Of a stretch of DNA of 64,000 bases, positions 39,088 to 63,577 are shown in pieces. The notes under the pieces were generated by a model. It searched no databases. It saw nothing but the letters and a program-made list of their open reading frames with translations, and was not told the DNA's origin. Both the position numbers and the translations under genes were made by a program. Source of the stretch: Actinomycetota bacterium. GTDB lineage: Bacteria; Actinomycetota; JAHEXW01. The stretch is taken from positions 20,604 through 84,603 of the forward strand of contig JANXYU010000035.1 in assembly GCA_025355855.1 (NCBI GenBank), read 5' to 3'. Every line of letters begins with the position of its first letter. The first letter of the stretch is position 1.

Positions 39088-39088
39088 C

Positions 39089-40138: not shown

Positions 40139-40141
40139 GTC

Positions 40142-41206: not shown

Positions 41207-41238
41207 GGAAGGTAACGCGAACGGCGCGTAATTCACAT

Positions 41239-47099: not shown

Positions 47100-47174
47100 A
47101 AAGTACCTAATTGAAGGAGAAGAACCGCTTTCTTGACGGATAGCCTAGAGATCCAAGAGCAAAGCGAGAGAATC

Positions 47175-48509: not shown

Positions 48510-49385
48510 GTGACCACCGCAGGCGGACCGGCGGTAACGCTTAAATCAGCAATTTCGGGAGAATACATATACATGTTGCTCACATGGGCCGATTCGACGA
48601 ACGATAACGTGGATGAAGTGTGGCGATATGACGGCGCGACCTGGACGCAGGGCCCGATTGACGACGCCGTTGCCGTGTTCTGGAATATCGACGAGTCAAT
48701 CAACGGTTTCGACAGGAGCGGCTGCCGGGTCCTATGTCACGCGGTTAACGGCCAACCAGCGATGAGCCTGGTGGGGCCGGTAACGCCCACGGGGAAATGG
48801 AGCGGCGTCAAACAGCGAGGCGATATCTGGGATATGTCGTTGGGCATCAGCAATGTCAGAGGGGTAGGGAACGACTATTTCTTCGGCATCGACGAGGCCT
48901 ACGTTAAGAATCCGACGACCATCACGCCGGTGATCCGGCGCCGGCACGACGCCTATACCGCCCGGGCTCCCTTCGAGCTCAACAAGCGCGTCGATCCGGC
49001 CACCGGTAAAAACGTGCCGCGCTATCGTTTGCGCGCCGGCTTGACGACGACCACGACCCCTTACCCCCAGATCGACCAGGTTGAATTAATCACAGGTGAC
49101 ATGTCTTTCGCCGCCGGGGATACTATACCGTATGTCGTTTTCTATCCGCTTGACACACCGTGGGGCGGCAGTCGCGATGACTTGGTAGCTAAGGGCGTCT
49201 GGCTGGACGGACAGTGGACGGTTGAGTTCAAGCGTAAACTAGACACGGGTCACCCAGCGGACGATATAAAGTTCGTTAAAAAGGCGGGACAGACAAGCTA
49301 TTATGTATTTGACGTCGCGCTGTTTAACAGGACGATCAGCCAACATACCTATTCGGGACCAATTAGTCTGGAGATCAAACAATGA
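48510..49385 (+). CDS. DOMON-like family member 5 carrying a CX3CH heme-c-type motif (GCRVLCH); true start probably upstream (~48309-48336) at a non-ATG codon, giving a lipoprotein signal ...LLLFLSGC
   Basis: Family motifs VVDGRAGDPVWSSA, WNIDESINGFDRSGCRVLCHAVNG, WGGSRDDL, LDTGHPADDIKF; the in-frame upstream extension encodes KIVVIATLLLFLSGCGYAN. Confidence 0.65.
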   Translation: MTTAGGPAVTLKSAISGEYIYMLLTWADSTNDNVDEVWRYDGATWTQGPIDDAVAVFWNIDESINGFDRSGCRVLCHAVNGQPAMSLVGPVTPTGKWSGVKQRGDIWDMSLGISNVRGVGNDYFFGIDEAYVKNPTTITPVIRRRHDAYTARAPFELNKRVDPATGKNVPRYRLRAGLTTTTTPYPQIDQVELITGDMSFAAGDTIPYVVFYPLDTPWGGSRDDLVAKGVWLDGQWTVEFKRKLDTGHPADDIKFVKKAGQTSYYVFDVALFNRTISQHTYSGPISLEIKQ

Positions 49386-49401
49386 AGGCCGAATACCAAT
49401 A

Positions 49402-50556
49402 GTGAGACCCAAATACCTAAGTAGCATCGCGCTCAGTTTAATGTTAATCGCAGCGCTCGCCTCGACGGGTTGCGCGACGAAAACAGGCGCCGTTAAGGCG
49501 CCTACCAAGCTAACGGTAAAAGCGGTCAAGGTTGATACATCGCCCAAGCTGGACGGTCAGGGCAGTGATGCCGTATGGCGCCAAGCCAAGCCGGCCACTA
49601 TCCACACGAAGAATGGCGCGGATCTAGTCCTAAGAACCGTTTACACGGCGGACAGCATCTACTTTCTGGCGACATGGAAAGACTGGACTCCGCAAAAAGG
49701 CTTGCTGTATTGGGAGTATGACGGGCAAAAGTGGCATTCGAATCTAAACGAAGACGACAAAATCTCATTTATCTGGAATATCGACCGTTCCATCGACGGT
49801 TTCGACAAGACCGGCTGCGCGGCCATCTGCCACAAGGGACCGGAAGGTCGCGACGAGATGGCTGTCTTTGGACCGCCCAAACAAAGCGGGAAAGTCTGGC
49901 CCGGATATAAAGAAAAAGCAGACGCCTGGAAATGGGCGCCCGGTGTGATGAGTGAGAAGCACGTTGTTGACGATGGGCTGTTTAGTGCGGGCCGCGAAGC
50001 CTTAGCGCGCCCGGAGATGCAAACAAGATTTAAGTTGTCCCTTTTATTTGACGGGGGCGACCAGGGAACAAAACAATGGTGGACACGCAACCCGAACGCA
50101 GCCGGCGGGATGCACGGTGATGAGGAAGAAGAGAACGAGACGCCGGGCAGTTTTAAACCGACGTATATGCCCAAGCCGGGCTATGATCTAAGCAAGCACC
50201 CTTTCCCGAACGCTCGCGATATGGTGCCGATCACGGACTACTCGATCTTCAAAGCGGGCGACAAGGTGCCGTTGGTAATGTACTTCGATCTGACAACCGC
50301 GAAGAATAAGATAGACTTTCCCGCTGGGCGGCCCTCCGGCAGCCGGGTCGATCTATCCGGGCAAGCGGTTTATAAGGACGGGCATTATACTCTCGAGTTC
50401 GGGCGTAAGCTTGATACCAAGCACAACGACGACGTCCAGTTCCGGCCGCAGAGCGGTCGGGCGGTGGCTGAGAATGTCTTTGGGGTGGCGCTCTTTAACG
50501 ACACCCGCTACGGTCATACCACCAGCGATCCCGTGACCTTAACCCTAGAACCGTAG
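49402..50556 (+). CDS. DOMON-like lipoprotein family member 6 with a CX3CH motif (GCAAICH); the ORF-track start 49303 overlaps the previous gene and is unlikely
   Basis: GTG 49402 yields MRPKYLSSIALSLMLIAALASTGC (lipobox); motifs KLDGQGSDAVWRQAKPATI, WNIDRSIDGFDKTGCAAICHKGPEG, LDTKHNDDVQF. Confidence 0.65.
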   Translation: MRPKYLSSIALSLMLIAALASTGCATKTGAVKAPTKLTVKAVKVDTSPKLDGQGSDAVWRQAKPATIHTKNGADLVLRTVYTADSIYFLATWKDWTPQKGLLYWEYDGQKWHSNLNEDDKISFIWNIDRSIDGFDKTGCAAICHKGPEGRDEMAVFGPPKQSGKVWPGYKEKADAWKWAPGVMSEKHVVDDGLFSAGREALARPEMQTRFKLSLLFDGGDQGTKQWWTRNPNAAGGMHGDEEEENETPGSFKPTYMPKPGYDLSKHPFPNARDMVPITDYSIFKAGDKVPLVMYFDLTTAKNKIDFPAGRPSGSRVDLSGQAVYKDGHYTLEFGRKLDTKHNDDVQFRPQSGRAVAENVFGVALFNDTRYGHTTSDPVTLTLEP

Positions 50557-50557
50557 C

Positions 50558-51880
50558 ATGAAGAATACCATTTTGCTCTATTCGCCTCCGCCGGTTCTGG
50601 AGAAGCCCTCGACCCGGGCGCCTCTGGCCTTGCTGGCCATCGCCGGTCCGCTGACCGTCGCCGGCTATCGCGTGATAATTTTGCCTCGCGATCCGGCCGC
50701 CCATTCCGCCGTTTTCCAGGCCTTAGCCGGGGACATTCTATGTTATGGCCTGTCGGTCATGACGGGGCCGCAGATCAATATAGCGTTGGCCTCGACGCGA
50801 GCGTTTAAGGAGTGCTGCAGCGCGCCGGTCGTCTGGGGCGGTTGGCATCCGACAATATTCCCCGAACAAGTCGCCCGGCAGGCGGAGATTGATTTTGCCG
50901 TCGCCGGACGGGGTGAGGACGCATTCCTCGCGCTGGCAAAATGCTTGTCAGGAAAGATGTCTTACCGGGGCATTGAGGGTCTGGTTTTCGCGGCAGACGG
51001 TCGCCTGATTAATAACGGTATAGCGCGCGGTAAGGACATCAATGGGTATCCGCCGCTTGACTATGGTCTTCTGGAAATGGACAACTATATATTTGCCGAC
51101 GATATTGCGGCGCGCACCATCAATTATGTATCAAGCCGGGGCTGTCCGAAGAACTGCCCATCCTGCGCCCAGAGCCTGGTTAGCGGCGGAACTTGGCGAG
51201 CCTATACGCCGGCGCGCCTGGTGAATGAGGCTATCCGCCTGCGCGACAACTTTGGCATAGGTGGGATACTTTTTGACGACGCCAATTTCTTTGTCGACGG
51301 CGACCGGGCGCGCGATTTCGCTGCGGGATTGATTAACCGGCAGGCCGCTTTACATTGGGGGATGCCGACAGCGCGCCTGGAGGACGCTGTTGGCTTCAGC
51401 GATTTGTTTTGGGACCTGCTGCGTAATAGTGGTCTGCAAAGCGTTTTTGTCGGCCTCGAGCCGCGTTGCGGCGCTATCAGCCGAAGCCAGACAGACGTTT
51501 ATGGTGAGTTTCGTCCCGCGGTCGATGGTCTAGCCGGCACCTTAAACCGCCACGGCATCGCTCTAAAGCTGTCCATTCTGGTTGGATTTCCTCCGAGCGG
51601 CGTTTATAAGTGGACCTTTGAGGACGAACTGACTGCGGCTACACAGTTAATTGACTCCGCTATAACCGCCGGCGCCTCGGTCAGTCCATCGATATCCCTT
51701 TACCTGCCTTTTCCTCACGCGCCCTTGTACGATCTGGCCCTGAAGAGCGGCCTCAGGCCGCCGACTACCCTGGACGGATGGGGCAGTTGGGATCCCGGTT
51801 CCCAAGATATGCCCTGGGTTCCAACGGGAGCCAAAGAGAAGATAGGCAACCTCAATAACGTCTACTCGAGGACCTCCTGA
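50558..51880 (+). CDS. B12-binding-domain radical SAM enzyme (class B)
   Basis: N-terminal B12-binding-like Rossmann region; radical SAM cluster motif CPKNCPSC (CX3CX2C). Confidence 0.75.
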   Translation: MKNTILLYSPPPVLEKPSTRAPLALLAIAGPLTVAGYRVIILPRDPAAHSAVFQALAGDILCYGLSVMTGPQINIALASTRAFKECCSAPVVWGGWHPTIFPEQVARQAEIDFAVAGRGEDAFLALAKCLSGKMSYRGIEGLVFAADGRLINNGIARGKDINGYPPLDYGLLEMDNYIFADDIAARTINYVSSRGCPKNCPSCAQSLVSGGTWRAYTPARLVNEAIRLRDNFGIGGILFDDANFFVDGDRARDFAAGLINRQAALHWGMPTARLEDAVGFSDLFWDLLRNSGLQSVFVGLEPRCGAISRSQTDVYGEFRPAVDGLAGTLNRHGIALKLSILVGFPPSGVYKWTFEDELTAATQLIDSAITAGASVSPSISLYLPFPHAPLYDLALKSGLRPPTTLDGWGSWDPGSQDMPWVPTGAKEKIGNLNNVYSRTS

Positions 51881-53340
51881 TGACCGTGGACACCCGGACG
51901 GCGCGTCTACTTGATCCGCTGACTCGATTCATGCGTTGGCTTGAGGACCTGCCGATCTCTCTGCCTGGGGTACTTGCTTTCTATATTGTGATTGCGTTTA
52001 TCAGATCATATTTCGAAACGACGCTTTTACATCCCGGAATCTTCCTGGTAATTTGGTTCTTTTGGAACGCGTATTTCTGTTTCTGTTTCATCAGCGCCTC
52101 GTATATCGCCAGCATCGCCGCTCAGCGCCCGTCCCTCAAGACATTGCGGGCCTCGATGGCAATCGTCTGGCTCGTCATCATACCGCCGCTTTTTGACTAC
52201 TACCTTGTCGGCCGGCGTTTGCCCTATGACTACCTCTTTAGCCAGCAAATATTTAAGGCAGTCGTCGAATTCTTCACTGCGGGAACTGTCAGTGTCGGGA
52301 TGCGTCTGGAAGTCAGTTTGTATGTATTAGCCGTCACCGTCTACGTCGGTCTAATGGCGCGCTCATGGACGAGGGCGATAATATCGGGAATCATCTTCTT
52401 TTTTGTCGGCATAGTCTTGGTCGCTCAATATCCGGGACTGTGGGTGCCGCTCGCCAACTACGCCGCGCCGATGCTCCCCGACCGGCCTTATCAGCCGAGC
52501 TTTCTGTTGCTTTTATACCTGGTCTTAGCTATCGCGTTTTTAGCGATCGTTATGAGACGGCAGGATAAGGATTGGGCCGCCCGTATTGTCCGCGCAGTGA
52601 CGGCTCCCCCGTTGGGAATGGTTCTGCTAGCTTGTCTGACTGGTTTGGTCTTCGCTCGACAGACAATCATCCTGGCGCTCACTGGTCCCGTATATGCGGC
52701 TCTTAGCCTGATTACCGTCACTTTTTGTCTGGCCGCTGTGCGGTGGGCCGGGGTCGGTGACGGGCGCGGCAAGCCGTTGGTGCTTTGGGATTGGGCGGCG
52801 CTGGCCGCTGTCTTGGCTTTAGCGTTAGGTTATCTGATCAGCGGCATTTATGGCGTCATAGTTGTCGCCGTTTGGTTGTTCGTGGCTGCTGCGGCGAAGA
52901 TTCTAACTAGCGGTAAGCCGGCCGGCATTTACGGGCAAGCCGCGCTGACGTCGATATGGGTCTTATTGGCCTTTCTGTTCGGCGCCGTCGCGACTCGATA
53001 TCAACTTTTGCCGGAGCACTTATTTGAAATCGGGCGAGCGGCGGCTGTCGTCGCGATCGTCGCTGTCGGAGTTTGTCTCGGGCCGGCGCTAGTGGATGCC
53101 GGAAAAACAAAAAGACGGAGGCAAGAGGCCGGCCTGCTGGTCTGGTTTACGTTTCTCAGCCCGTTGTTCTTCAGCCAAGCGAAGCCGGTCCTATTCTTTA
53201 CCATCGGCGGCGCCAGTCTGGCCGCGCTTACGATTTGGCACGGGCGTTGGCCGCGGCTCGTTCAACCGCTCGGGTTAATGGTGGCGTTGGTGGCTTTTAT
53301 ATTCGGCTCCGGCCTGTTGGCGACCCCTATTGTGCTTTAG
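51880..53340 (+). CDS. Polytopic integral membrane protein (>=12 TM helices), function unknown
   Basis: Uniformly hydrophobic helices; 1-nt overlap with the upstream gene. Confidence 0.55.
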   Translation: MTVDTRTARLLDPLTRFMRWLEDLPISLPGVLAFYIVIAFIRSYFETTLLHPGIFLVIWFFWNAYFCFCFISASYIASIAAQRPSLKTLRASMAIVWLVIIPPLFDYYLVGRRLPYDYLFSQQIFKAVVEFFTAGTVSVGMRLEVSLYVLAVTVYVGLMARSWTRAIISGIIFFFVGIVLVAQYPGLWVPLANYAAPMLPDRPYQPSFLLLLYLVLAIAFLAIVMRRQDKDWAARIVRAVTAPPLGMVLLACLTGLVFARQTIILALTGPVYAALSLITVTFCLAAVRWAGVGDGRGKPLVLWDWAALAAVLALALGYLISGIYGVIVVAVWLFVAAAAKILTSGKPAGIYGQAALTSIWVLLAFLFGAVATRYQLLPEHLFEIGRAAAVVAIVAVGVCLGPALVDAGKTKRRRQEAGLLVWFTFLSPLFFSQAKPVLFFTIGGASLAALTIWHGRWPRLVQPLGLMVALVAFIFGSGLLATPIVL

Positions 53341-53414
53341 CGTCGATCTGTTTACGGCCCTGACGTGTGATAAAATAATATATATAGTTTTCCAAGGAGA
53401 TAACCGAACAAAAC

Positions 53415-54269
53415 ATGACATCTTCAACACAAGAACGGCGCTATGCTGTCGCCCTCGTCCGGTCCGTCCGGTGGCCGGAAACCATTCATTTCTTGATCAT
53501 GGGCGGCGCGGGCCTTCTGCTGGCGGGCCGCGTTATCGGTCAAGGTTGGGCTGTTATCCCTATTTCGTTGATCACGTTCTTTATCGTGGCTTGCCTATAT
53601 ATGTTCGCTTCGTTGGTGAATGATGCCAATGACGTCCCGGTAGACATTGTCTCTAATCCGGACCGTCCGATTGTCGTCGGTTTAATGACGCCGGCCGACG
53701 CGATGCGGGCCGCCTGGTTTTTCGCCGCCGCGGCTCTGATATTGGGGTTCTTTATCGCGTCCGAGGTGCGCTGGCTAGTCGCTCTGGGCTTGGTGTTGGC
53801 CTGGGTGTACTCGGCCCCGCCGATCCGGCTTCGACGGTATGTTTTGAGCTCACTCGTAATTGGCGGAGGATCCATGTTGGCTTTCCTAATCGGATATATG
53901 ACGATGGATTTCAGCCACAGCTGGGGTCTGCCGGTGTCAATCAAACTAGTCGCGTTGGTGATTCTCGTAGCCTTCTCCGCCGGCCAGATGATTCGCGACC
54001 TGAAGGACTACGCGGGCGACAAGGCAGCGCGTATCACGACTTTGTTCACAATCTTTGGAAGGGAGCGCGGCAAACAGATAATGACAGGTTTGTTGGTGTT
54101 TTGCTTTCTGGTTCCATTAGTAATCCTGCACGGCTGGCCCGACGCGCTTGTTTACCTGACAGTCGGGGCCGCTTCGGTTTACTTCTTCCAGTTCAAGGAG
54201 GCTGTTGACCGCGTCATTCTGTTGTCTTCCGTGGTCTCCCTTTACACAGTAGTAAGGCTGTTGACCTGA
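53415..54269 (+). CDS. UbiA-family aromatic/isoprenoid prenyltransferase
   Basis: NDANDVPVDIVSNPDRP (UbiA NDxxDxxxD motif); ~8 TM helices; second Asp-rich region around DLKDYAGD. Confidence 0.8.
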   Translation: MTSSTQERRYAVALVRSVRWPETIHFLIMGGAGLLLAGRVIGQGWAVIPISLITFFIVACLYMFASLVNDANDVPVDIVSNPDRPIVVGLMTPADAMRAAWFFAAAALILGFFIASEVRWLVALGLVLAWVYSAPPIRLRRYVLSSLVIGGGSMLAFLIGYMTMDFSHSWGLPVSIKLVALVILVAFSAGQMIRDLKDYAGDKAARITTLFTIFGRERGKQIMTGLLVFCFLVPLVILHGWPDALVYLTVGAASVYFFQFKEAVDRVILLSSVVSLYTVVRLLT

Positions 54270-54270
54270 C

Positions 54271-55662
54271 ATGAAATTAGTGATCATTGTTCCGGCACCC
54301 AAAGATGTTCCTTCCCCCTGGTTCGGCCTACCGCTGCGGGCGCCGGGAGGCGGGCCGATGTCTGCTTGGCCGCCGCTGAACGCGATGTTGCTAGCGGCTT
54401 TATGCCCGCCGGATGTCGACGTTTCGATCATCGATGAATACGTGGACCGAGCTGACAATAATTTACAAGCTGATCTGGTGGCGATCTCCGTCTTAACGGC
54501 GGCTGCGCCGCGTGCCTACGAGTTGGCTGACCTTTTTCGGGCGAGAGCCATACCTGTAGTCTTGGGCGGGCCTCATGTTACCGGCGCTCCCGAAGATGCC
54601 GCGGCCCATGCCGACGCGATCGTGGTCGGGGAGGGCGAATCTGTTTGGCCAAACATAATCGCTGACGCCAGCGCCGGGTCACTCAAACCTGTTTATGTCG
54701 GGGAGCCGTTAACTGATCTTAGCGGCCTGCCGTTGCCTCGCTGGGATCTAGTGAAGCGCGAACGATATATCGTGCCCGACATCATCGGCATTTCCCGAGG
54801 ATGCACTAATTCTTGCGACTTCTGCTATTTGAACACTCAGTATAAGGCGCCGTACAGGTTGCGGCCGATCCCCGAGGTCATTGCAGAGATAAAAGCTATG
54901 CCGCCGGGGCGGTTCATGTTTCTGACCGACGACAATTTGGCCGCGGACCTGGCCTATGCCAAAGAGCTTCTTCGGGCGATGATCCCATTGAAGCGGCGCT
55001 GGCTGGGTCAAGCCACGAACGAGGTCACGGAGGACGACGAGTTGATGGAACTGCTGGCGCGCAGCGGTTGTCACACTCTGCTGTGGAACGCGAGATCATT
55101 CGCTACGGCCAAGGCTAAGAGCGATTTGAGCCAAACCGAAGAGGTCGCGTTCTATCGTCGGGCGGTTACACGGTTTCATCATTATGGAATCGCGACGGCG
55201 GCGACGATTATAGTGGGTGCTGAGGATTCAAAGAGAGATGTCGATGACGTGGTCTGGCCTTTCATTAAAGGCTGCGGTTTTGTCATGCCCTATGCATTTA
55301 TGATGACTCCCTTGCCCGGGACGCCGCTGGAACGCCGTTTACGCCGAGACGGTCGGCAAATGGACACCGACTGGGGCAAATACGATTTTTTCCACAGCGC
55401 TTTCGCGCCCCTAACCCAAACAAATGCCGAGGTCGAGACCATTTACGCCGACCTAATCAGGAAGATTCACGCGCCTGGTCAAATGGTGCGGCGGGGCATC
55501 CTTGGCACCTCGGTAATACTTCGCAGTCTGCGCTGGCAGCCCCGCGGTCCCGTCGCCCTCTGGGGCGATTTTCGCGTGTCGCTTCGATTTTTCCGTCTAT
55601 ATGTTAGACATGGCCGTGAACTTGTTCGCCGCCTCGGCCACCGCGGGGAGGGCAACGGCTAA
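54271..55662 (+). CDS. B12-binding-domain radical SAM enzyme (class B), paralog
   Basis: CTNSCDFC (CX3CX2C) after a B12-binding-like N-terminal region. Confidence 0.75.
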   Translation: MKLVIIVPAPKDVPSPWFGLPLRAPGGGPMSAWPPLNAMLLAALCPPDVDVSIIDEYVDRADNNLQADLVAISVLTAAAPRAYELADLFRARAIPVVLGGPHVTGAPEDAAAHADAIVVGEGESVWPNIIADASAGSLKPVYVGEPLTDLSGLPLPRWDLVKRERYIVPDIIGISRGCTNSCDFCYLNTQYKAPYRLRPIPEVIAEIKAMPPGRFMFLTDDNLAADLAYAKELLRAMIPLKRRWLGQATNEVTEDDELMELLARSGCHTLLWNARSFATAKAKSDLSQTEEVAFYRRAVTRFHHYGIATAATIIVGAEDSKRDVDDVVWPFIKGCGFVMPYAFMMTPLPGTPLERRLRRDGRQMDTDWGKYDFFHSAFAPLTQTNAEVETIYADLIRKIHAPGQMVRRGILGTSVILRSLRWQPRGPVALWGDFRVSLRFFRLYVRHGRELVRRLGHRGEGNG

Positions 55663-56837
55663 TGCGTTTATCCATCCCTACGAGCTGGGATAACAAACTT
55701 ATCACGGGCGTGACCGGCTTGCCGGTGACGGATGTCTACGGGAAGTTGGCCCGCGATGTTGTCGGCGGGGCGCGCTATCCGTATTGGCTGCCGCACGTAT
55801 CCGGAGCCGGAGCGGAGGCCCACATCAAGCTGGCCAGGGACGCCGGTATCGCTTTCAATTACGTTATCAACGCGACCTGCTTGGGTGGCGAAGAGAAGAA
55901 CCCGGAATACCGCCGCTCGGTTATCGAACTGCTGGATTGGATCAACGATCAAGGGGTTGAGATCATCACGGTCTCGTCCGTCTGGCTGCTCCGTCTGGCT
56001 AAGGAACTTTACCCGCGTCTTCGGGTCGCGACGTCGGCTTTCCAGCAGGTCCGATCGCTGGAGAAAGCCAAACAATTCGAGGCTCTGGGGGCGGACATAA
56101 TCACCATCCAGGACGCCAACCGCGACTTCCGACTACTTGAATCGTTGCGGCAGGGGCTGAACTGCGATATTCAGATGGTTGTCAACAATTCCTGTATCTT
56201 TAACTGTCCTTTCGAGTACGCGCACGGCAACACCATGAGCCACAGCTCCCAGACAGGCCATCGGAACAATGGCTATGTTGTCGACACGGCGGTGTTTGCC
56301 TGCGCCAACACGAAGTTCGCCGACCCGGTTGAGTTGATCCGGTCGCGGTGGATCCGCCCCGAGGATCTGAAGACGTATGAAGATATCGGCTTGGATCACT
56401 TCAAGCTGGTGGATCGCAACATGCCGACGGATCGTCTGATCGAGATCACCAAAGCCTATGCCGCGCGCCGTTGGGACGGCGACCTCCTGGACCTGCTGGT
56501 ATTTCCGCCGCGAGATTTTCCGCTTAAGTTCGGTACACCGCACCGGTTTAGGTATTTCCTAAGGAACTGGCGGCAGGCCAATCCACTGAAACTTCTGAGC
56601 CGCGTGACGTCCAAGGTGTCGGAATCGGTCGACCCGATCAGCATCGATAATAACCAGCTGGACGGGTTCCTGGAGCATTTTCGTAACATCGACTGCGCGG
56701 CTATCGATTGCGACACCTGCGGCTACTGCCGGCGCGTCGCCGACCAAGTGATGACGATCGACGAGACTGTAGTCCGCGACCAGCTGAAGGCGTACGACGA
56801 GATCCGCCATAACCTGACGGACGGCAAGATATTCTAG
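55662..56837 (+). CDS. Putative U32-family (UbiU/UbiV-like) Fe-S protein, TIM-barrel-type
   Basis: Alternating beta/alpha N-terminal region with Y.INATC..EE (U32-like Y-x-G-E-x-x-C context); Cys cluster CIFNCPF ... DCAAIDCDTCGYC. Confidence 0.4.
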   Translation: MRLSIPTSWDNKLITGVTGLPVTDVYGKLARDVVGGARYPYWLPHVSGAGAEAHIKLARDAGIAFNYVINATCLGGEEKNPEYRRSVIELLDWINDQGVEIITVSSVWLLRLAKELYPRLRVATSAFQQVRSLEKAKQFEALGADIITIQDANRDFRLLESLRQGLNCDIQMVVNNSCIFNCPFEYAHGNTMSHSSQTGHRNNGYVVDTAVFACANTKFADPVELIRSRWIRPEDLKTYEDIGLDHFKLVDRNMPTDRLIEITKAYAARRWDGDLLDLLVFPPRDFPLKFGTPHRFRYFLRNWRQANPLKLLSRVTSKVSESVDPISIDNNQLDGFLEHFRNIDCAAIDCDTCGYCRRVADQVMTIDETVVRDQLKAYDEIRHNLTDGKIF

Positions 56838-56839
56838 GG

Positions 56840-57814
56840 GTGACCATCAAGCGTTTATTTGTCGAAACCAATTGGGACGATGCGCTGCTGCCGGAGGTGG
56901 CCGGTACTTCCTGCCGCGGCATGTTCGGCCGTCCGGCCGGCGGTGTTCTGACGGAGGCGGCAGCCGGGCACATCCGGACCGTTAAGCGCGGCGGTCTTGC
57001 GTTCAGCTATGCCTTGGATGAGCTTTGTCTCGACAATCGTGAGCTCACGCGGGAGGGCAATCGGCGGCTGCGGCAACTGCTGGATAAGCTGGCGGCTCTG
57101 GAGGTGGACGAGGTGATCGTGTCTTCGTTCTTCTTGCTAGAGCTGATCAAGGACAAGTATCCGTCCCTGGCGGTCGTCATGTCCGATACTGTCGCCTTCG
57201 ACAGCGTCCAGCGGGTGCGTGAGTTTATGCAGCTGGGGGCACGCTACGTCTGGTTGCGCGACATGAATCGTGATTTTAAACAGCTCAAGACGCTCGCCGG
57301 CACGTCGCCCGGAGTCTGCCGTCTGGTCGCGAATCGCGCCTGCGGCTTCGATTGCGCGTTGGCCATTACCCACTCCAACGAGCGTTCCCATACCAGGGAC
57401 GATCACACGGGGACGGACCTTTTGGTAGCGGATTTATGCGTTCAAAGAATGCTGCGCGAACCGGCCGCTCTTATGAAAGCGCGTTGGATCAGGCCCGAGG
57501 ATCTGGAATTCTACGCGACCCGCGGTTTCTCTGATTTTGTGATTTATGCGCCGACCCCGGAGACGGTCCGGATAGTTGATGCCGTGCGAGCCTACGACTC
57601 GGCTGAATCTCCTGCCAACCTGTTGGACATCCTCAGCCTGCCAGACGACGTAAGATTTGACCAGGTACGACAGGCCGTGCAGCTGGATACCGCGCAGCTG
57701 GAAGATTTTGTCCAGGGATTCGGCGACAAGGATTGCCGACGGGCGGACTGCGACGTCTGCGGCTACTGCTCCGCTGCCGCGGCTGCCGCGGTGCGGCCGC
57801 GCTCGGCCAAATGA
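56840..57814 (+). CDS. Putative U32-family (UbiU/UbiV-like) protein, paralog of 55662-56837
   Basis: Colinear with the upstream gene (FSYALDELCLDNRE, CGFDCALAITHSNE, DCRRADCDVCGYC). Confidence 0.4.
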   Translation: MTIKRLFVETNWDDALLPEVAGTSCRGMFGRPAGGVLTEAAAGHIRTVKRGGLAFSYALDELCLDNRELTREGNRRLRQLLDKLAALEVDEVIVSSFFLLELIKDKYPSLAVVMSDTVAFDSVQRVREFMQLGARYVWLRDMNRDFKQLKTLAGTSPGVCRLVANRACGFDCALAITHSNERSHTRDDHTGTDLLVADLCVQRMLREPAALMKARWIRPEDLEFYATRGFSDFVIYAPTPETVRIVDAVRAYDSAESPANLLDILSLPDDVRFDQVRQAVQLDTAQLEDFVQGFGDKDCRRADCDVCGYCSAAAAAAVRPRSAK

Positions 57815-58419
57815 ACCAGCGCGATCTCGGTTCCTGCAAACAGCGGACGCATGGACTCGGCGGTCTCCAAACCGGCGCGGCGTACCAATCCGTCTAGGCC
57901 GACCTCCAGAAAGACAAAGAAGCTGGGCTCTTCTACGCGCCCAATCGTTTGTTTGAGCGCCCAGGTGCCTATTCTTGTGCGGGGCACGGCGAAGTCGGCC
58001 GCTACGATCGCCCGGCGCGTGACGCGCGCCATCTCTTTTAAGAAAGCCTCCGCGTCCGACAACGGCACCTCGTGCAACGCTAACGAAATAAAGCTGACAT
58101 CAAAACTGTTGTCAGGAAAGGGTAGGTCGGTCGCGTCCGCCTGGCGCAGATCCGCTCCGGTGCCGCGCAGACGGCGGGCTGCTCGTTCCAGCATCGCCGG
58201 AGACAAGTCGACCAACGTTACCGCCGCGTCATGCCGGGTCAAGCGTACCGCCAGGCTGCCCGTGCCACCTGCTACGTCCAACACGCGATCGCCTGGTTGC
58301 AGCCGGGCGATAGTCGCCATGCGGTTCCACGTTCGCCACATAAATGGCGTAACCAGACCGTAAACCTTGGCCAAATGGTCGAATCTGTCAATAATCTCGG
58401 TCTTGTCTCCAGCCGGCAT
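57763..58419 (-). CDS. Class I SAM-dependent methyltransferase (UbiE/MenG-like)
   Basis: Motif I VLDVAGGTGSLA; convergent with the upstream + genes; fills the only + strand coding gap of this region. Confidence 0.7.
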   Translation of the reverse strand: MPAGDKTEIIDRFDHLAKVYGLVTPFMWRTWNRMATIARLQPGDRVLDVAGGTGSLAVRLTRHDAAVTLVDLSPAMLERAARRLRGTGADLRQADATDLPFPDNSFDVSFISLALHEVPLSDAEAFLKEMARVTRRAIVAADFAVPRTRIGTWALKQTIGRVEEPSFFVFLEVGLDGLVRRAGLETAESMRPLFAGTEIALVHLAERGRTAAAAAAEQ

Positions 58420-58543
58420 GCGTGCGACTCCTTTAGACCCTTGCGTGTTGCGCCACCATTGGCAACATTATACGTCACGGGCGCTTTCGGTCTACGTTCA
58501 GTGTGCTTGGCGATGAACCGTTTGACCTGATAGAATTAAATCT

Positions 58544-59608
58544 ATGAGACAATCATCAAGACCGGCGTCGAGGCTTCGATCCCGTGGCATAATCATTTCC
58601 AATCTGCTGATCCCGCTTGTGTTGGCTGGTTTCGTCGTCGCCGCGACCGGCTGTGACCGTGCCGCATCTCCGCAGACCAGACTGGTAGTGCCAGCGAACT
58701 ATACCCAAGAAAAGATCAAGGCGGACGGCCAAATAACAGAAAAGGCCTGGACGACCGGAAAGTTTACTAAGATTCCGACGACGGGAGGCCCGGACGTCTA
58801 TATGAAGAGCGCCTACGGCGCTAAAGACATCCATTTCTTGCTAAAGTGGCGCGACTCGACTCAAAATAACATCTCTAAGGTCTGGGAATACGACGGCAAG
58901 ACTTGGAAGAACGGTCTAGAGCAGGACAAGTTGGCCATTCTCTGGAACAAAGACGACAGCGTCGCGTATTTCTCGCTCAAGGGTTGCGGCGCCGTCTGCC
59001 ATACCGAGAATAAGGACAAGAATCTTTGGTATATGGCGACCAATAGTCGCAAAGAGAAAACGGATGAATGGTTTTGGCTCGCCGGCATCACCAATGTGTA
59101 TGGTTTTGTTGAAGACCGTTATCTGGATGACGCGGTCGATCCAACCTTTATGAAAGCGGCTCTGAAGCGCGACCAGGGTGACCCGGGCTTTCTCAAGAAC
59201 GGCTACAAGACCGCGATTGAGCGCATCGCCCCGACCCGCCCGACGAAGAAACTGATCGGAGACTTGACAGTCGCGGACACGCCGTATCCCACCAGCGAGC
59301 AAATGGAGGACATAACTTCCTTTAAAACATTCAAGGCGGGGGACAAAGAACCTTTTATTTACTTTACGGGGACCCCGACGGGCAGCGCTGCCGACGTTCT
59401 TGGTCACGGCGTCTGGAAAGACGGCTGGTGGTATCTAGAGGTGTCCCGGAAGCTGGATACAGGCCGCCGGGACGATATGCCTTTCAAGCCCGGCCGCGGG
59501 CCGGTTTATTACATGTTCGGCTTGGCGGTTTTTGACCACACTGAACCGCCGCCGATTAAACATGGGACCAGTGCCCCGGTTTCGCTGGAACTCCTGCCAA
59601 AACCCTAA
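58544..59608 (+). CDS. DOMON-like lipoprotein family member 7 with a CX3CH motif (GCGAVCH)
   Basis: Lipobox ATGC; motifs KADGQITEKAWTTGKFTKIPT, WNKDDSVAYFSLKGCGAVCHTENKD, LDTGRRDDMPF. Confidence 0.7.
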   Translation: MRQSSRPASRLRSRGIIISNLLIPLVLAGFVVAATGCDRAASPQTRLVVPANYTQEKIKADGQITEKAWTTGKFTKIPTTGGPDVYMKSAYGAKDIHFLLKWRDSTQNNISKVWEYDGKTWKNGLEQDKLAILWNKDDSVAYFSLKGCGAVCHTENKDKNLWYMATNSRKEKTDEWFWLAGITNVYGFVEDRYLDDAVDPTFMKAALKRDQGDPGFLKNGYKTAIERIAPTRPTKKLIGDLTVADTPYPTSEQMEDITSFKTFKAGDKEPFIYFTGTPTGSAADVLGHGVWKDGWWYLEVSRKLDTGRRDDMPFKPGRGPVYYMFGLAVFDHTEPPPIKHGTSAPVSLELLPKP

Positions 59609-60187
59609 TTGATGTCCTATAATAATCTGATATACCTGACTACTGGAGCGTTCGAGACCTTGACTAATTTAGACTGTAATGTTGAATCTGTCCGTGCGGC
59701 GGTCGCCGTCCACATTGCCTCGCTGTCTGAAGCGCCGGCCGATGATTTACTGCTTTTCGAGAGGGGCCGCTGCCAACGGGCGATCCTACTTTATCGCACC
59801 GCGGACGGAGCCAGCGCTCCCGCCGAGTCGCTTCTGGCTACCGCGACCGCGCTGGAGTTGCTCGAGCTTGGTCTGACAAAACATTTTAAACAGGCGGAAC
59901 CGCCCGTCTATGGTCTGACGCCGGCCAATCTGGCGTTGATAACGGCCGACCGCTATTACGCGAAAGCCTTGGCGTTGGTGGTCGATCTAAGGGACGACCG
60001 TCTCGTCCGGATTCTTTGCGACGCGTTGGCTGAGGCCAGCGAAAGCTACAGTCAAGGCCAGCTAAATGGCAGTTCCGGCCGACCAGGCGCTCTCGCTCAG
60101 GCCGCGTCACACTTGGGCTGCCTGCTGGGCGGGCAGCGCGATTATCAGGAAGCATCGATAAACGACATTGATCGAGGAGGTCAATAG
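59609..60187 (+). CDS. Hypothetical protein; weak resemblance to the first helices of trans-polyprenyl synthases but lacking a DDxxD motif (possible non-catalytic small subunit)
   Basis: AAVAVHIASLSEAPADD region; ATG overlaps the upstream stop. Confidence 0.4.
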   Translation: MMSYNNLIYLTTGAFETLTNLDCNVESVRAAVAVHIASLSEAPADDLLLFERGRCQRAILLYRTADGASAPAESLLATATALELLELGLTKHFKQAEPPVYGLTPANLALITADRYYAKALALVVDLRDDRLVRILCDALAEASESYSQGQLNGSSGRPGALAQAASHLGCLLGGQRDYQEASINDIDRGGQ

Positions 60188-61923
60188 TGCTCTTTTCCCC
60201 AACCCATCCTGACTTGATATTTCTCCACGCGCCGAGCGTGTATGATTTTCGAGAGAAGTCTATTGTCTATGGACCGGTTAGTGATCTTGTCCCCTCGACG
60301 CCGATTTTCGAGATGTATCCGGTCGGTTTTTCGAGCATCTCTCACTACCTGCGCAAACATGGTTTGCATGTTCGGATAATCAACATCGCGCTCCAGATGC
60401 TTAAAAGTCGCGACTTCGACGCCGAGAAGTACATCGCGGGTCTGAAAAGCCCGGCGATTTTCGGTATCGACCTGCATTGGATGCCTCACTGCCACGGGTC
60501 GGTTGAGCTGGCCAAGATCGTCAAGAAATACCATCCGGACACGCCGATTGTTTTCGGCGGTTTTTCTTCGTCTTATTTCTACGACGAGCTGATCGAGTTG
60601 CCGGAAATCGATTTCGTCATGCGCGGCGACACCACTGAAGAGCCGATGAGGCAGCTCGTGGAGGCGGTCAAAACGGGCGGCGACCTGTCAGCCGTTCCGA
60701 ACCTCGTCTGGAAGAAGGACGGCCAACCCGTTGTTAATCCGTTCACCTACGTACCCGCGGACATCGACGAATACAGTATCGGCTACAACGAAATGGTACG
60801 GTCCGTTTTTAAGTATCGCGATTTCACCGGCGTTATCCCGTTCATGGACTGGACCAGGTATAACATCATGGCCGCTTTCGTCGGTCGCGGTTGTACGATG
60901 AACTGCGTGTTTTGCGGCGGATCGCGCTATACGTTTGATAATACATACAACCGCAAGAAGATGGCCTTTCGCAGCCCCGAGGCTTTTCTAAAAGACGTTC
61001 GGACGATCAGCCACCTGTCGCGCGGCCCCATTTTCATTCTGGGTGACTTACTTATGAACGACTGGGCGCACGGCGAGACGATTCTGCGCGGCATCGCCGA
61101 AATGAAGATCAAGAACAAGATTATTCTGGAGTTCTATGTATTGCCCCCGGTCGAGGTTTTCGACCTGGTCGACAAGTATCTAGATGACTATAGTTACGAA
61201 ATGTCGGTCGAGAGCCACGACGAAGACGTGCGAAAGCTGGTCGGCAAGGGCTACTCTGACGAGGATTTTGAGGCCTGCCTGGCGGCGGCGCTCTCGCATG
61301 AGGATTGCGAGCGATTCGATCTCTATTTCATGGTAGGCATGCCGGGCCAGACATATGAAAAGACCATGTCGACCATCGATTATTGCCGCAAACTATACAC
61401 TCAATTGGGCAACGACAAGCGTCTTTTGCCGTTCATTTCTCCGCTGGCGCCGTTCCTGGATCCGGGCAGCCGCGCTTTTGTCGAACCCGAGAAGCACGGA
61501 TACATATTGCTGGCCAAAACATTGGAAGAACATCGCCAGGCCCTGCTCCAACCCAGCTGGAAATACATCATGAACTATGAGACGAAATGGATGAACCGGG
61601 ATCAGATCGTTGACGCGACGTACGACTCGGCCTTTGAGCTAAATAGACTGAAACTCGAGGTAGGAGCCATTACCGAGAAGACCGCTCGGGACACCGAGAC
61701 TCGTATTGTGCGAGCCCGAGATATCATGCAGCGGGTTGATGAAATCATGGTTTTGCCGGACAAAGCCGAGGTCGAACAGAAGCTGAAAGAGCTGAAAGCG
61801 GAGGTCGACCGCTCCAGTATCTCAACTGTCGCAGATAAACAGGAGTTGGAATGGTCGGTGCGTCAGCTGACCAAGTTTCGTATTCCGCATATCATAAGAC
61901 TGATGTTCGGCGCCGGAGACTGA
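60187..61923 (+). CDS. B12-binding-domain radical SAM enzyme (class B), third paralog
   Basis: CTMNCVFC (CX3CX2C); N-terminal B12-binding-like region. Confidence 0.75.
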   Translation: MLFSPTHPDLIFLHAPSVYDFREKSIVYGPVSDLVPSTPIFEMYPVGFSSISHYLRKHGLHVRIINIALQMLKSRDFDAEKYIAGLKSPAIFGIDLHWMPHCHGSVELAKIVKKYHPDTPIVFGGFSSSYFYDELIELPEIDFVMRGDTTEEPMRQLVEAVKTGGDLSAVPNLVWKKDGQPVVNPFTYVPADIDEYSIGYNEMVRSVFKYRDFTGVIPFMDWTRYNIMAAFVGRGCTMNCVFCGGSRYTFDNTYNRKKMAFRSPEAFLKDVRTISHLSRGPIFILGDLLMNDWAHGETILRGIAEMKIKNKIILEFYVLPPVEVFDLVDKYLDDYSYEMSVESHDEDVRKLVGKGYSDEDFEACLAAALSHEDCERFDLYFMVGMPGQTYEKTMSTIDYCRKLYTQLGNDKRLLPFISPLAPFLDPGSRAFVEPEKHGYILLAKTLEEHRQALLQPSWKYIMNYETKWMNRDQIVDATYDSAFELNRLKLEVGAITEKTARDTETRIVRARDIMQRVDEIMVLPDKAEVEQKLKELKAEVDRSSISTVADKQELEWSVRQLTKFRIPHIIRLMFGAGD

Positions 61924-61926
61924 CGC

Positions 61927-62892
61927 GTGAATACCTATCCTGTTCCGGCCAGAATACGTCGAGATCTCAAAAAAGTTGAGAACGGACTGGGAACAGTATT
62001 AGCCGCCTATCCGGGTGTTTTGCGCGAACCGACCCAACACATCATAAAGGCCGGAGGCAAGCGTTTGCGTCCGGCTCTGGTACTGATCTCCGGCCAAGCG
62101 GGCGAGTATGATTATGACAGGCTGGAACCTCTGGCTCTCTGCGCTGAGCTGCTACACACGGCGACTTTAGTCCATGATGATGTTCTGGACGGAGCAGGGG
62201 AACGTCGGGGACGCGCAACCGTGAACGGACGGTGGGACGACAGGATTGCCCTAGCGACAGGGAATGTATTACTGGCGGCTAGTTTCGCGGCGTTATGCGA
62301 CAGAGCCGCGCCCCGTGTCATGGCCGGCATGGCCGTCGCCGCTGAACTGCTCAGTGCCGGCGAGACTATGCAGCAGCGAGCCTGGCGCGACACGTCTCTG
62401 TCTATTGAAGACTATACGCGCCGAGTTTGCTATAAGACGGCTTCTTTATTCGCGGCTTGCTGCGAACTGGGCGGCGTGGCCGGGGGCGCGCCGGAAGCGG
62501 ATATTCGGGCGCTTAAACAATTCGGCGAGTGCCTTGGCCTAGCGTTTCAAGTCTTTGACGACGTTTTAGATATCGTGGCAGACGAGGCCAAACTAGGCAA
62601 ATCGGTGGGTGCTGACGTTCGAGATGGGACCGTGACTTTGCCGGCGATATACGCGCTGGCGGGGGACGAGAGCGGGGAACTGAAAGCGATTCTTGAGGAT
62701 CCGACGTTGCCGGAGGACGCTGTTCAACGCGCTTTGCGCCTTATCGTCGCCAGCGGCGGCGTTGAAGAGGCAAAGAATGACGCGCGTGATTATGTCTCGC
62801 GAGCGCTTGAAGCCATTGAACACGTTAGTCGTAAGGCGTTAAAGACTGAATTGAAGGCAATCGGCGAATTCGTCGTTGACAGGTATAATTAG
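61927..62892 (+). CDS. trans-Polyprenyl diphosphate synthase (IspB/HepT/GGPPS family)
   Basis: FARM LVHDDVLD and SARM VFDDVLD Asp-rich motifs with conserved R/K context. Confidence 0.85.
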   Translation: MNTYPVPARIRRDLKKVENGLGTVLAAYPGVLREPTQHIIKAGGKRLRPALVLISGQAGEYDYDRLEPLALCAELLHTATLVHDDVLDGAGERRGRATVNGRWDDRIALATGNVLLAASFAALCDRAAPRVMAGMAVAAELLSAGETMQQRAWRDTSLSIEDYTRRVCYKTASLFAACCELGGVAGGAPEADIRALKQFGECLGLAFQVFDDVLDIVADEAKLGKSVGADVRDGTVTLPAIYALAGDESGELKAILEDPTLPEDAVQRALRLIVASGGVEEAKNDARDYVSRALEAIEHVSRKALKTELKAIGEFVVDRYN

Positions 62893-63004: not shown

Positions 63005-63577
63005 ATGATCATGTTAGACAAAAAGAAAGCCGGGGTCTGGATAAAGATCGGCGCCGTAGTGGTCGCGCTGTCCTTTATACTCACCCTGATGCCTGCTTTA
63101 CGCTCCGGCGACCTTGGTGCTTTCTTCAAATCGATATTCCAAGGCAGTACGGGATCATCGGCGGATACCCAGGCGCAGGCGCAGATAATACAGCTGAAGG
63201 CGAAGTTGGCTAAGTCGCCCAAGGACACCCCTAGCTGGATCGCGTTGGGTAACGCCTATTTCGATACGGGCAAGTATCAGAACGCGATCGCCTCATACCA
63301 GAAGGTTCTCGCTCTGGAGCCGACAAACTATGACGTCATGACCGATATGGGGGTTGCCTACAACGCCTTGAATCAAAACGAGAAAGCGCTGGAAATATTC
63401 AAAAAGGTGACCGGCGCCAAACCGGACCATGCCATGGCCTGGTTCAACCTGGGCGTAATCTATAAGAGCAAGAACGACATTCCAAACATGAAGTTCGCCT
63501 GGCAGCGATTTTTGACTCTGCAACCGACCGGGGCCCAGGCCGACAATGTGCGGCAGGAGCTGGCCGCAGCGAAGTAA
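63005..63577 (+). CDS. TPR-repeat protein with an N-terminal TM anchor
   Basis: RBS AGGGAGAG; 3-4 TPR units (WIALGNAYFDTGKYQNAIASYQKVLALEP...). Confidence 0.7.
   Translation: MIMLDKKKAGVWIKIGAVVVALSFILTLMPALRSGDLGAFFKSIFQGSTGSSADTQAQAQIIQLKAKLAKSPKDTPSWIALGNAYFDTGKYQNAIASYQKVLALEPTNYDVMTDMGVAYNALNQNEKALEIFKKVTGAKPDHAMAWFNLGVIYKSKNDIPNMKFAWQRFLTLQPTGAQADNVRQELAAAK

Follow-up and report, generated by a model that had tools for sequence, protein, structure and literature searches.

What is made by a bacterial gene cluster that combines three cobalamin (B12)-binding radical SAM (S-adenosyl-L-methionine) enzymes, a UbiA-superfamily prenyltransferase, two U32 proteins, a UbiE-like methyltransferase and a prenyl diphosphate synthase, and that lies within an island of haem protein genes? 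This question is raised by positions 50558–62892 of a 64,000-nucleotide stretch of DNA from an Actinomycetota bacterium (assembly GCA_025355855.1, contig JANXYU010000035.1), which is referred to below as the window. An earlier note, made from this DNA alone, proposed O2-independent quinone biosynthesis, and all the parts that it listed for this interval are indeed present, as judged by Pfam and NCBIfam profiles and by sequence motifs. The reading that is tentatively preferred here is an O2-independent pathway to a non-canonical, long-chain prenylated, quinone-like redox lipid. This reading is preferred because of the module formed by a radical SAM enzyme of the TIGR04190 family and the prenyl synthase, the evidence on the U32 proteins, the presence of the UbiE-like methyltransferase, and the apparent co-transcription of these genes with those of haem lipoproteins in an electron-transfer island.

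The cluster is conserved beyond chance, and it is modular. It is present in three lineages: the window, the metagenome-assembled genome (MAG) ‘Actinomycetes bacterium isolate nzgw113' (loci L001 and L011), and a metagenome contig (L171). Among 185,579 species representatives, no genome other than this MAG is fully syntenic; it comes from a different species in which the gene order is kept and the proteins are 64–94% identical to those of the window. In L171, the order is three genes of the EB_dh (DOMON-like) family, the first radical SAM gene (rSAM1), a fused UbiA gene (P0250, 43% identical to the window UbiA), a different B12-binding radical SAM gene, another EB_dh gene, and the genes for a small protein, the TIGR04190 enzyme, the prenyl synthase and a TPR protein. 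Identity to the window is 64% for rSAM1, 71% for EB_dh, 40% for the small protein, 82% for TIGR04190, 54% for the synthase and 64% for the TPR protein; the L171 cluster contains neither U32 proteins nor the methyltransferase. This gene content defines a conserved core (the EB_dh genes, rSAM1, UbiA, the small subunit, TIGR04190 and the synthase) and an exchangeable tailoring cassette (rSAM2, U32-A, U32-B and the methyltransferase), which is found in two lineages and is replaced by another B12-binding radical SAM gene in the third. The UbiA proteins are 43–67% identical across the syntenic lineages, and in all three variants of the cluster, B12-binding radical SAM genes lie on both sides of UbiA.

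Except for the methyltransferase, all genes of the cluster, the EB_dh and hexahaem cytochrome genes upstream of it and the TPR gene downstream are encoded on the plus strand. There is a 1-bp gap between the genes for EB_dh protein 2 and rSAM1, and one-base overlaps occur at three junctions (rSAM1 with the adjoining 486-amino acid membrane protein, rSAM2 with U32-A, and the small protein with rSAM3); the stop codon of EB_dh3 stands directly against the start codon of the small protein gene. The same EB_dh family thus brackets both halves of the cluster. The functional unit probably reaches past 50558–62892, to include at least two EB_dh genes upstream (~48309–50556) and, downstream, the TPR gene (63005–63577), which encodes a CcmH/CycH-type TPR domain (PF23914, 49.8 bits against 42), is 93% identical in L001 and 64% in L171, and is kept in all three lineages, with TatA and TatC following it in L001. 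Judging by this arrangement, the biosynthetic genes are most likely co-expressed with the haem proteins that their product would serve. A scan of the whole window against Rfam gave no match at or above a gathering score; in particular, no cobalamin riboswitch is seen before the three B12-dependent enzymes.

The three class B radical SAM enzymes named in the earlier note are confirmed, each with a B12-binding domain (PF02310, 47–52 bits) and a CX3CX2C motif: rSAM1 (50558–51880, CPKNCPSC), rSAM2 (54271–55662, CTNSCDFC) and rSAM3 (60187–61923, CTMNCVFC). A link to quinones comes from rSAM3, a true member of the TIGR04190 (Ta0216) family, which it matches with 651 bits against a cutoff of 500 and over 540 of the 554 profile positions. 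No other gene of the cluster is as well conserved (94% identity in L001, 82% in L171), and the family has over 7000 homologues at ~50% identity in Actinomycetota, Chloroflexota, the former Deltaproteobacteria and archaea. The family alignment was used to recover 79 metagenomic loci other than the window, and neighbours were counted within three open reading frames (ORFs). At least one quinone-linked gene (menA, ubiE, a prenyl synthase or nuo) is found in 33 of these loci. A MenA-type prenyltransferase accounts for 25 of the 79, mostly in the position immediately upstream (in L122, for example, with 134 bits to TIGR00751 against a cutoff of 102), a frequency for which the rough chance expectation is well below one locus of 79. 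UbiE/MenG is a neighbour in five loci (TIGR01934, 271 bits against 158), a prenyl synthase in three and a PTO1314-like radical SAM enzyme in four, and in six loci TIGR04190 is embedded in a set of nuo genes, mostly with nuoC and nuoD on either side (5–6 loci). The order in L097 is small protein, TIGR04190, ubiE, synthase; in the window, the small subunit, TIGR04190 and the long-chain synthase likewise form one module of the cluster. By the company that it keeps, TIGR04190 looks like an unrecognised quinone-related enzyme. In the literature, no paper was found that describes a link of TIGR04190 to quinone genes, or that connects cobalamin radical SAM enzymes with menaquinone or U32 proteins with B12 radical SAM enzymes.

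Two further features of the TIGR04190 loci can be recorded. A gene resembling DUF62-type (R)-S-adenosyl-L-methionine hydrolases often precedes menA and TIGR04190 (L099, L109, L114, L117, L121, L134, L138 and L157), in the order gatB, SAM hydrolase, menA, radical SAM gene, and may have to do with the handling of SAM on behalf of the radical SAM enzyme. Furthermore, a radical SAM enzyme resembling the PTO1314 family (117 bits, below the cutoff) is encoded between the prenyl synthase and TIGR04190 genes in L122 (7079–8002) and L127 (6950–7996), where the operon reads menA, synthase, radical SAM gene, TIGR04190; both the PTO1314 and the TIGR04190 families are named for proteins of Thermoplasmatales.

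The other two members of the module are the prenyl synthase and its small neighbour. The synthase (61927–62892) is an all-trans polyprenyl diphosphate synthase of the HepT/IspB-like, long-chain type (Pfam, 217 bits; motifs HTATLVHDDVLD and FDDVLD). Its best match in the Protein Data Bank (PDB) is component 2 of heptaprenyl diphosphate synthase (190 bits), followed by deca- and octaprenyl synthases, and its best NCBIfam match is HepT (245 bits, below the equivalog cutoff of 456), with deca-, octaprenyl and solanesyl synthases next. It has two DDxxD motifs, and the residues at −4/−5 before the first of them, DDVLD, are alanine and threonine within HTATLVHDD, which we take to match the long-chain pattern of Escherichia coli IspB. 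The chain-length check suggested in the earlier note thus gives a long-chain type, on account of the small residues before DDVLD and the hepta-, deca- and octaprenyl synthase matches in PDB. The ‘possible small partner subunit' of that note (59609–60187, 192 amino acids) turns out to be a catalytically dead, prenyl synthase-like protein: profile–profile comparison by hhalign relates it to the synthase profile with 95% probability (E = 3.5e-8), it aligns to synthase residues 47–192, and the first DDxxD motif is replaced by TKHFK. Only this profile–profile comparison detected the likeness, with BLASTP against the synthase not significant and PDB sequence matches at chance level (E ~1), and a single-sequence AlphaFold2 (AF2) model has a pLDDT of 43; the homologue in L097 matches HepT with 43.6 bits. 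For the small protein of the window, a HepS-like role beside the long-chain synthase, as its partner subunit, is thus probable.

The prenyltransferase itself is represented by two genes. UbiA_284 (53415–54269), the catalytic half, matches Pfam UbiA with 95 bits and retains both Asp-rich motifs (N69DANDVPVD77 and D195LKDYAGD202). Most of its relatives are proteins of 480–550 amino acids in which an unannotated N-terminal membrane domain of ~220 amino acids precedes the UbiA domain; UbiA_284 is without this N-domain. The gene at 51880–53340, recorded in the earlier note only as a polytopic membrane protein, encodes a 486-amino acid membrane protein that has no Pfam match but can be aligned over its full length to the family of ‘N-domain plus UbiA' fusions. 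It has the N-terminal domain common to P0250, P0251 and others, with both Asp-rich motif regions deleted or lost, so that its identity can be refined to a degenerate, full-length UbiA paralogue. In L171, a single fused gene of 505 amino acids stands in place of the two. We read the pair as the outcome of a duplication followed by subfunctionalisation, in which one copy became a scaffold and the other kept the catalytic role; the two proteins may form a complex, with the 486-amino acid protein as the likely partner. The possibility that this protein is a CcsA/ResC-type haem handler was considered and rejected, given that it has no match to Cytochrom_C_asm and aligns full-length to the UbiA fusions instead.

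Relatives of UbiA_284 are rare: only 13 proteins among 1.84 billion are found at E ≤ 1e-30. All its NCBIfam matches lie far below the respective cutoffs (ChlG, 65 bits against 313; PRK12884, 63 against 269; HPT, 58 against 226; DGGGPS, 48 against 296; MenA, 25.9 against 277), no model of 4-hydroxybenzoate (4-HB) polyprenyltransferase or haem O synthase is among the 15 families listed for it, and the sole PDB sequence match is the DGGGP synthase 6m31, with 32 bits. The relatives in its clade show the same NCBIfam picture, with ChlG- and DGGGPS-type families nearest and the cutoffs not reached.

The remaining radical SAM enzymes differ in their place in the cluster. rSAM1 is a core member (B12-binding domain, 47.5 bits; 85% identity in L001, 64% in L171) with a weak score to Pfam Radical_SAM (20 bits); it reaches the cutoff of no NCBIfam family, the best being BchE (82 bits against 481). 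rSAM2 (B12-binding domain, 52.5 bits; Radical_SAM, 42 bits) belongs to the swappable cassette: the B12-binding radical SAM enzyme in its position in L171 is 26% identical to it, and it is 31% identical to the one that adjoins a U32 pair in L087. PDB sequence searches yielded nothing for rSAM2 or rSAM3 and only a marginal match for rSAM1. A tetraether synthase of the Tes type, which makes glycerol dialkyl glycerol tetraethers (GDGT), was also considered and rejected, the Tes model being absent among the matches listed for all three enzymes.

The cassette further encodes two paralogous TIM-barrel proteins of an undescribed, Fe-S-type subfamily of U32, U32-A (55662–56837; Pfam U32, 25.0 bits against a gathering score of 22.4) and U32-B (56840–57814; 30.6 bits against 22.4). 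The PF01136 matches cover only the N-terminal part of the profile. The two proteins are ~29–32% identical and have a cysteine pattern in common, and U32-B is likely the heterodimer partner of U32-A. The AF2 model of U32-A (pLDDT 92) has the U32 protein Mk0906 (5d88) as its top Foldseek match in PDB (E = 7.6e-12; TM-score 0.75 on the target). The invariant residues of U32-A are C178, C182, H188, C214, C345, C353 and C356, together with a WIRPED motif; the cysteines of the subfamily are thus arranged as C178-X3-C182, C214 and a C-terminal C345-X4-C-X2-C-X2-C356. The subfamily has at least 597 matches among species-representative genomes, with hosts that include Planctomycetota, Omnitrophota, Elusimicrobia, Desulfuromonadales, Thermodesulfobacteriota and Dehalococcoidales, and two U32 genes side by side are met with again in loci of Omnitrophota, Planctomycetota and Desulfobacterium.

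Chorismate mutase makes prephenate, and the known U32 reactions hydroxylate aromatic or heteroaromatic carbons. When the neighbours in 79 loci with U32-A relatives (L011–L089) were clustered, type II chorismate mutase or a chorismate mutase fusion was found in nine, a UbiE-family methyltransferase in 12, a type III polyketide synthase (PKS) in ten and an MMPL transporter in seven, the order in the latter loci being PKS, MMPL, methyltransferase, U32. B12-binding radical SAM genes occur in 45 of the 79, often immediately downstream of U32 or flanking a U32 pair. The characterised U32 proteins UbiU/V, TrhP and RlhA are tied to O2-independent hydroxylation, and prephenate, shown to be the oxygen donor for UbiU/V, has been proposed as such for the whole family (PMC10990095). 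Given these neighbours (chorismate mutase on the one hand, PKS and methyltransferase on the other) and this literature, the most reasonable role to propose for the subfamily is that of an O2-independent ring hydroxylase.

U32-A relatives recur in at least four contexts, which include, besides the order with PKS, the orders U32, B12-binding radical SAM gene, 131-amino acid protein, chorismate mutase; aconitase_C-like gene, FAD gene, LuxE, LuxC, U32; and U32 pairs among many B12-binding radical SAM genes with PMT_2 glycosyltransferases (example loci for the U32 contexts are L027, L034 and L039; L052, L061, L068–L070 and L074–L078; and L048, L054, L063, L066 and L087).

The last enzyme of the cassette is a UbiE/COQ5-like class I SAM methyltransferase (57763–58419, minus strand; Pfam Ubie_methyltran, 63 bits; Methyltransf_25, 80 bits), the 3' end of which overlaps U32-B convergently by 52 bp. 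The UbiE/MenG-like methyltransferase of the earlier note is therefore present, with its strand corrected to minus and without reaching the MenG/UbiE equivalog cutoffs (NCBIfam MenG/UbiE, 77–79 bits, below the cutoff; TIGR01934, 76.8 against 158, over residues 8–149 only). The gene is present in L001 and L002 and absent from L171. The plus-strand ORF at 57851–58363, which is rich in Arg and Ser, lacks a family match and runs antisense to the well-scoring methyltransferase, was rejected as a gene and is taken to be a shadow ORF.

In the preferred pathway, the heteromeric synthase would supply a C35–C45 tail, which the UbiA pair would join to a head group, probably an aromatic one. Either the head group or the tail would be C-methylated by rSAM1 and TIGR04190 with cobalamin, or altered by them through other radical reactions; the U32 heterodimer could hydroxylate the ring with prephenate in place of O2, and the UbiE-like methyltransferase and rSAM2 would methylate the product. 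At the surface of the membrane, electrons would then pass between the finished lipid and two sets of haem proteins, the EB_dh lipoproteins with CX3CH and the hexahaem cytochromes. A bolder proposition, and a doubtful one, is that strictly anaerobic Actinomycetota make a new class of respiratory lipid, in which a split archaeal-type UbiA would join a long polyprenyl tail to a head group that cobalamin radical SAM chemistry builds or decorates, aided in part of the lineages by a new prephenate-dependent U32 hydroxylase and by methylation; the lipid would be reserved for lipoprotein c-type DOMON cytochromes in extracellular electron transfer. It would follow that TIGR04190 catalyses a widespread, hitherto unrecognised B12-dependent reaction in the making or modification of (mena)quinone in anaerobic bacteria and archaea.

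Several observations weigh against the quinone-like redox lipid. The cluster contains no ring-precursor gene (UbiC, Men or Mqn), no UbiD/UbiX decarboxylase and no UbiT. The U32 proteins, which had been taken to be of the UbiU/UbiV type, are not: they have no match to UbiU, UbiV or any other NCBIfam family at E ≤ 0.01, are 15–18% identical to E. coli UbiU/V and have a different cysteine motif. Of the Fe-S cysteines of UbiU, presumably C169, C176, C193 and C232, only C176 aligns with a conserved cysteine of the subfamily (C178), a soft result from a low-identity alignment. The absence of the U32 pair, rSAM2 and the methyltransferase from L171 implies that hydroxylation is an add-on rather than core chemistry. 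With respect to the UbiA subfamily, the outcome is mixed: ChlG, DGGGPS and haem O synthase, which would have spoken for another pathway, are not indicated, with the scores far below the cutoffs, but neither are the quinone clades (4-HB, MenA and MqnP), and the nearest families are DGGGPS, ChlG and HPT. On sequence grounds, UbiA_284 is a member of an uncharacterised clade. Some of the UbiA relatives are on archaeal-looking contigs, beside a SPASM radical SAM gene and a second UbiA (L174) or an AMMECR1 protein (L173), and in L175 a relative with 35% identity is accompanied by a UbiE-like methyltransferase, a Caroten_synth/CruF-like protein, FAD enzymes, a SPASM radical SAM enzyme and a geranylgeranyl reductase. 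The quinone module could, moreover, be a housekeeping neighbour. To our knowledge, no B12 radical SAM enzyme has a place in any quinone pathway, and the papers found on menaquinone methylation report class C enzymes only. For the class B enzyme Slr0320, methylation of plastoquinone has only been a speculation (PMC8065906). The quinone interpretation of the earlier note accordingly stands in part: the association of TIGR04190 with menA, ubiE and nuo, the long-chain synthase and the context of the U32 proteins speak for it, and its identification of UbiU/V does not hold, with a UbiA outside the quinone clades and no genes for the ring precursor.

In L175, the UbiA relative is adjoined by an aconitase_C-like protein of 166 amino acids and a FAD/PqqD-like protein of 420 amino acids (15579–17471), and this pair is 32–41% identical to the pair upstream of LuxE-LuxC-U32 in L048, L054, L063, L066 and L087. 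The shared pair indicates that the UbiA clade and the U32 clade draw on a common gene pool.

The same tension between resemblance and difference is apparent when the locus is compared with known pathways. The redox window in which a respiratory chain works depends on its quinones, and few anaerobic routes to these are known: UbiUVT leads to ubiquinone, and class C methylases act in the case of methylmenaquinone. The window resembles the UbiU/UbiV/UbiT ubiquinone pathway of E. coli and Pseudomonas (PMC6747719, PMC10990095) in the adjacent paralogous U32 pair with conserved cysteines, the UbiA-family prenyltransferase, the UbiE-like methyltransferase, the long-chain synthase and the anaerobic setting, and chorismate mutase stands beside U32 relatives. 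Unlike that pathway, it has U32 proteins without an NCBIfam match to UbiU, UbiV, TrhP or RlhA and with CX3C and C-terminal CX4CX2CX2C motifs, a UbiA that is not of the 4-HB type, three B12 radical SAM enzymes and a U32 cassette that is optional, and it lacks UbiT and UbiD/UbiX; no SCP2 or UbiT domain is found in any gene at 42–64 kb of the window.

The terminal steps of menaquinone biosynthesis (MenA, MenG/UbiE and HepS/HepT), with the hepS-menH-hepT operon of Bacillus subtilis, offer a parallel in the small non-catalytic subunit with a HepT-like large subunit. The order of small protein, rSAM3 and synthase in the window parallels that of small protein, TIGR04190, ubiE and synthase in L097, and elsewhere TIGR04190 is usually beside a MenA-type gene. 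In contrast to these systems, the window has no MenA-type gene, a methyltransferase below the MenG/UbiE cutoffs, a synthase below that of HepT (245 against 456) and a B12 radical SAM enzyme at a position for which there is no known step.

A precedent for the kind of role proposed here for the radical SAM enzymes is the methylation of the ring by MenK, MqnK and MenK2. These are HemN-like class C enzymes that add ring methyls to the finished quinone and lower its potential; the enzymes of the window belong to class B (cobalamin) and are unrelated to them in sequence. MenK, MqnK and MenK2 have been described as class C radical SAM menaquinone methyltransferases (PMC8065906). The polyketide quinone and alkylresorcinol operons pkqABC and srsABC combine a type III PKS, a methyltransferase and an O2-dependent oxidoreductase (PMC9927152), and the loci in which U32-A relatives occur with type III PKS, MMPL and UbiE methyltransferase resemble them, with U32 in the position of the hydroxylase. 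Unlike these operons, the window is without a PKS and would obtain an isoprenoid tail via UbiA, so that the parallel is informative for the U32 subfamily rather than for the locus itself.

Among the competing explanations, the one that fares best, and is nonetheless unlikely, has the cluster tailor an isoprenoid lipid without a redox role, such as a lipid of the membrane or envelope or a carotenoid-like one; the alternative given in the earlier note, modification of isoprenoid ether or membrane-spanning lipids, is thereby kept as a rival. UbiA would then prenylate a non-aromatic acceptor, the radical SAM enzymes would methylate, cross-link or cyclise the chains, and the U32 pair and the methyltransferase would add hydroxyl or methoxy groups. 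The weak best matches of the UbiA clade (DGGGPS, ChlG and PRK12884) and the neighbours of the UbiA relatives described above (CruF-like protein, SPASM radical SAM enzyme and geranylgeranyl reductase in L175; SPASM radical SAM enzyme or AMMECR1 elsewhere) point in this direction. The lycopene elongase that acts with CruF is a UbiA-type enzyme with a non-aromatic acceptor, which the window-UbiA relative that adjoins a CruF-like gene brings to mind. The second motif of the window UbiA is of the D-x-x-D-x-x-G-D type, as in DGGGP synthase (6m31), another UbiA with a non-aromatic acceptor; the low scores to that enzyme (32 bits to 6m31; 48 against the cutoff of 296), the clade-specific N-terminal membrane domain of ~220 amino acids and the adjacent long-chain synthase set the window apart from it. 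In the U32 neighbourhoods, LuxC/LuxE (6–7 of the 79 loci) and KAS, CrtI-like and GGR-like genes would be compatible with lipid tailoring, yet the known U32 reactions hit aromatic or heteroaromatic carbons. Similarly, lipid-modifying radical SAM enzymes act almost solely on isoprenoid lipids (PMC13459092), but TIGR04190 is tied to menA, ubiE and nuo. The synthase is of the long-chain and not the C20 type, the cluster has no GGGPS, glycerol-1-phosphate dehydrogenase, phytoene synthase or desaturase, and co-transcription with the haem lipoproteins is left without an explanation.

More unlikely still is a composite locus, in which an operon for the tail or maturation of menaquinone (small subunit, TIGR04190, synthase, TPR and Tat) happens to lie next to an unrelated set of island genes (rSAM1, the UbiA pair and the cassette). 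The high conservation of TIGR04190, its very wide distribution and its variable contexts would suit such an arrangement, as would the housekeeping look of the downstream TPR and TatA/TatC genes, and the order may reflect descent, the three syntenic lineages being related. That order, however, has outlasted the divergence of UbiA to 43% identity and the swap of the cassette, and EB_dh genes are joined to both halves, EB_dh3 abutting the start of the small subunit and EB_dh2 lying 1 bp from rSAM1. A maturation system for the haem proteins of the island, in which a tetrapyrrole, the EB_dh proteins or the cytochromes would be prenylated, methylated or hydroxylated, is improbable: the CX3CH motif of the cluster-proximal EB_dh proteins, kept in three lineages and missing from the distal paralogues, the tight packing of rSAM1 on EB_dh2, the weak best matches to BchE (rSAM1 and the L171 radical SAM enzyme) and ChlG (UbiA), and the CcmH-type TPR and Tat genes downstream could be accommodated by it, but the BchE and ChlG matches are far under the family cutoffs, the cluster has no tetrapyrrole-pathway or haem-lyase genes, the long-chain synthase and the link of TIGR04190 to menA, ubiE and nuo do not fit, and we know of no protein prenylation by a UbiA-type enzyme. 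A cluster for ribosomally synthesised and post-translationally modified peptides (RiPP) was considered and rejected, there being no precursor-like small gene in the ORF listing of the cluster; some Omnitrophota U32 loci do have small ORFs.

All the enzymes discussed here belong to known superfamilies, and biosynthesis of a quinone or another prenyl lipid is a known kind of function. What appears undescribed is the combination: a split UbiA with the N-domain, three class B radical SAM enzymes, a new U32 subfamily as an exchangeable cassette, and CX3CH DOMON lipoproteins. If the product is a redox lipid, cobalamin radical SAM enzymes and a new branch of U32 would join quinone biochemistry, the lipid would be a candidate biomarker, and it would become easier to understand how extracellular cytochromes are fed in uncultured bacteria of the Gram-positive type. 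The TIGR04190 and U32-subfamily leads stand whatever the locus in the window does, and could give functions to very large uncharacterised families.

The haem proteins with which the product would interact are encoded directly upstream of the enzymes and among them. Three EB_dh proteins (Pfam gathering score 33.3) have a CX3CH motif: EB_dh1 (48309–49385; 63 bits; CRVLCH), EB_dh2 (49303–50556; 73 bits; CAAICH; lipobox LASTGC; conserved in L001 and L171) and EB_dh3 (58544–59608; 72 bits; CGAVCH; lipobox AATGC; 86% identity in L001, 71% in L171), the last of which bears out the description of a DOMON-like CX3CH lipoprotein at 58544 in the earlier note. The motif of these three cluster-proximal proteins is kept in the L001 and L171 orthologues, and we infer that haem is attached covalently through it. 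For EB_dh1 (region 48276–48512), no ATG, GTG or TTG start includes the in-frame signal peptide and lipobox IVVIATLLLFLSGC. This upstream in-frame peptide has the lipobox LFLSGC, and a Shine–Dalgarno-like sequence, GAGAAAGG, lies 7–10 nucleotides before an ATA at 48309 or 48312; EB_dh1 is probably a lipoprotein that starts at this non-canonical ATA (48309 or 48312) and not at the GTG at 48510.

Directly upstream of EB_dh1 are three paralogous hexahaem c-type cytochromes (44896–45963, 45987–47099 and 47133–48227), each with six CXXCH motifs, which match Pfam Paired_CXXCH_1 and MtrC-like families and are 78–89% identical to their L001 counterparts. These are preceded directly by a polytopic membrane protein of 813 amino acids (42281–44722; 80% identity in L001) with a central spermidine synthase-like methyltransferase fold (weak, 23 bits). 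Multihaem cytochromes and at least eight EB_dh paralogues, with an ORF of 7177 amino acids, make the window as a whole a large island. Five more EB_dh-domain genes (37975–42294) have neither CX3CH nor CXXCH, unlike the three beside the enzymes, and two of the five, 40142–40696 and 40730–41206, resemble a single EB_dh domain that has been split into an N-terminal and a C-terminal half. The 7177-amino acid ORF (13983–35516) lies in the middle of the island and is rich in Thr, Gly, Ala and Ser; it has a membrane helix at the N-terminus and contains 10 CXXCH motifs, and its product is a giant cytochrome or surface protein. A tandem pair of decahaem proteins that have a membrane helix at the N-terminus, together with proteins of 12 and 14 haems (215–1963, 4156–5235 and 8242–9762), could form the end of the chain at which quinol is oxidised in the membrane.

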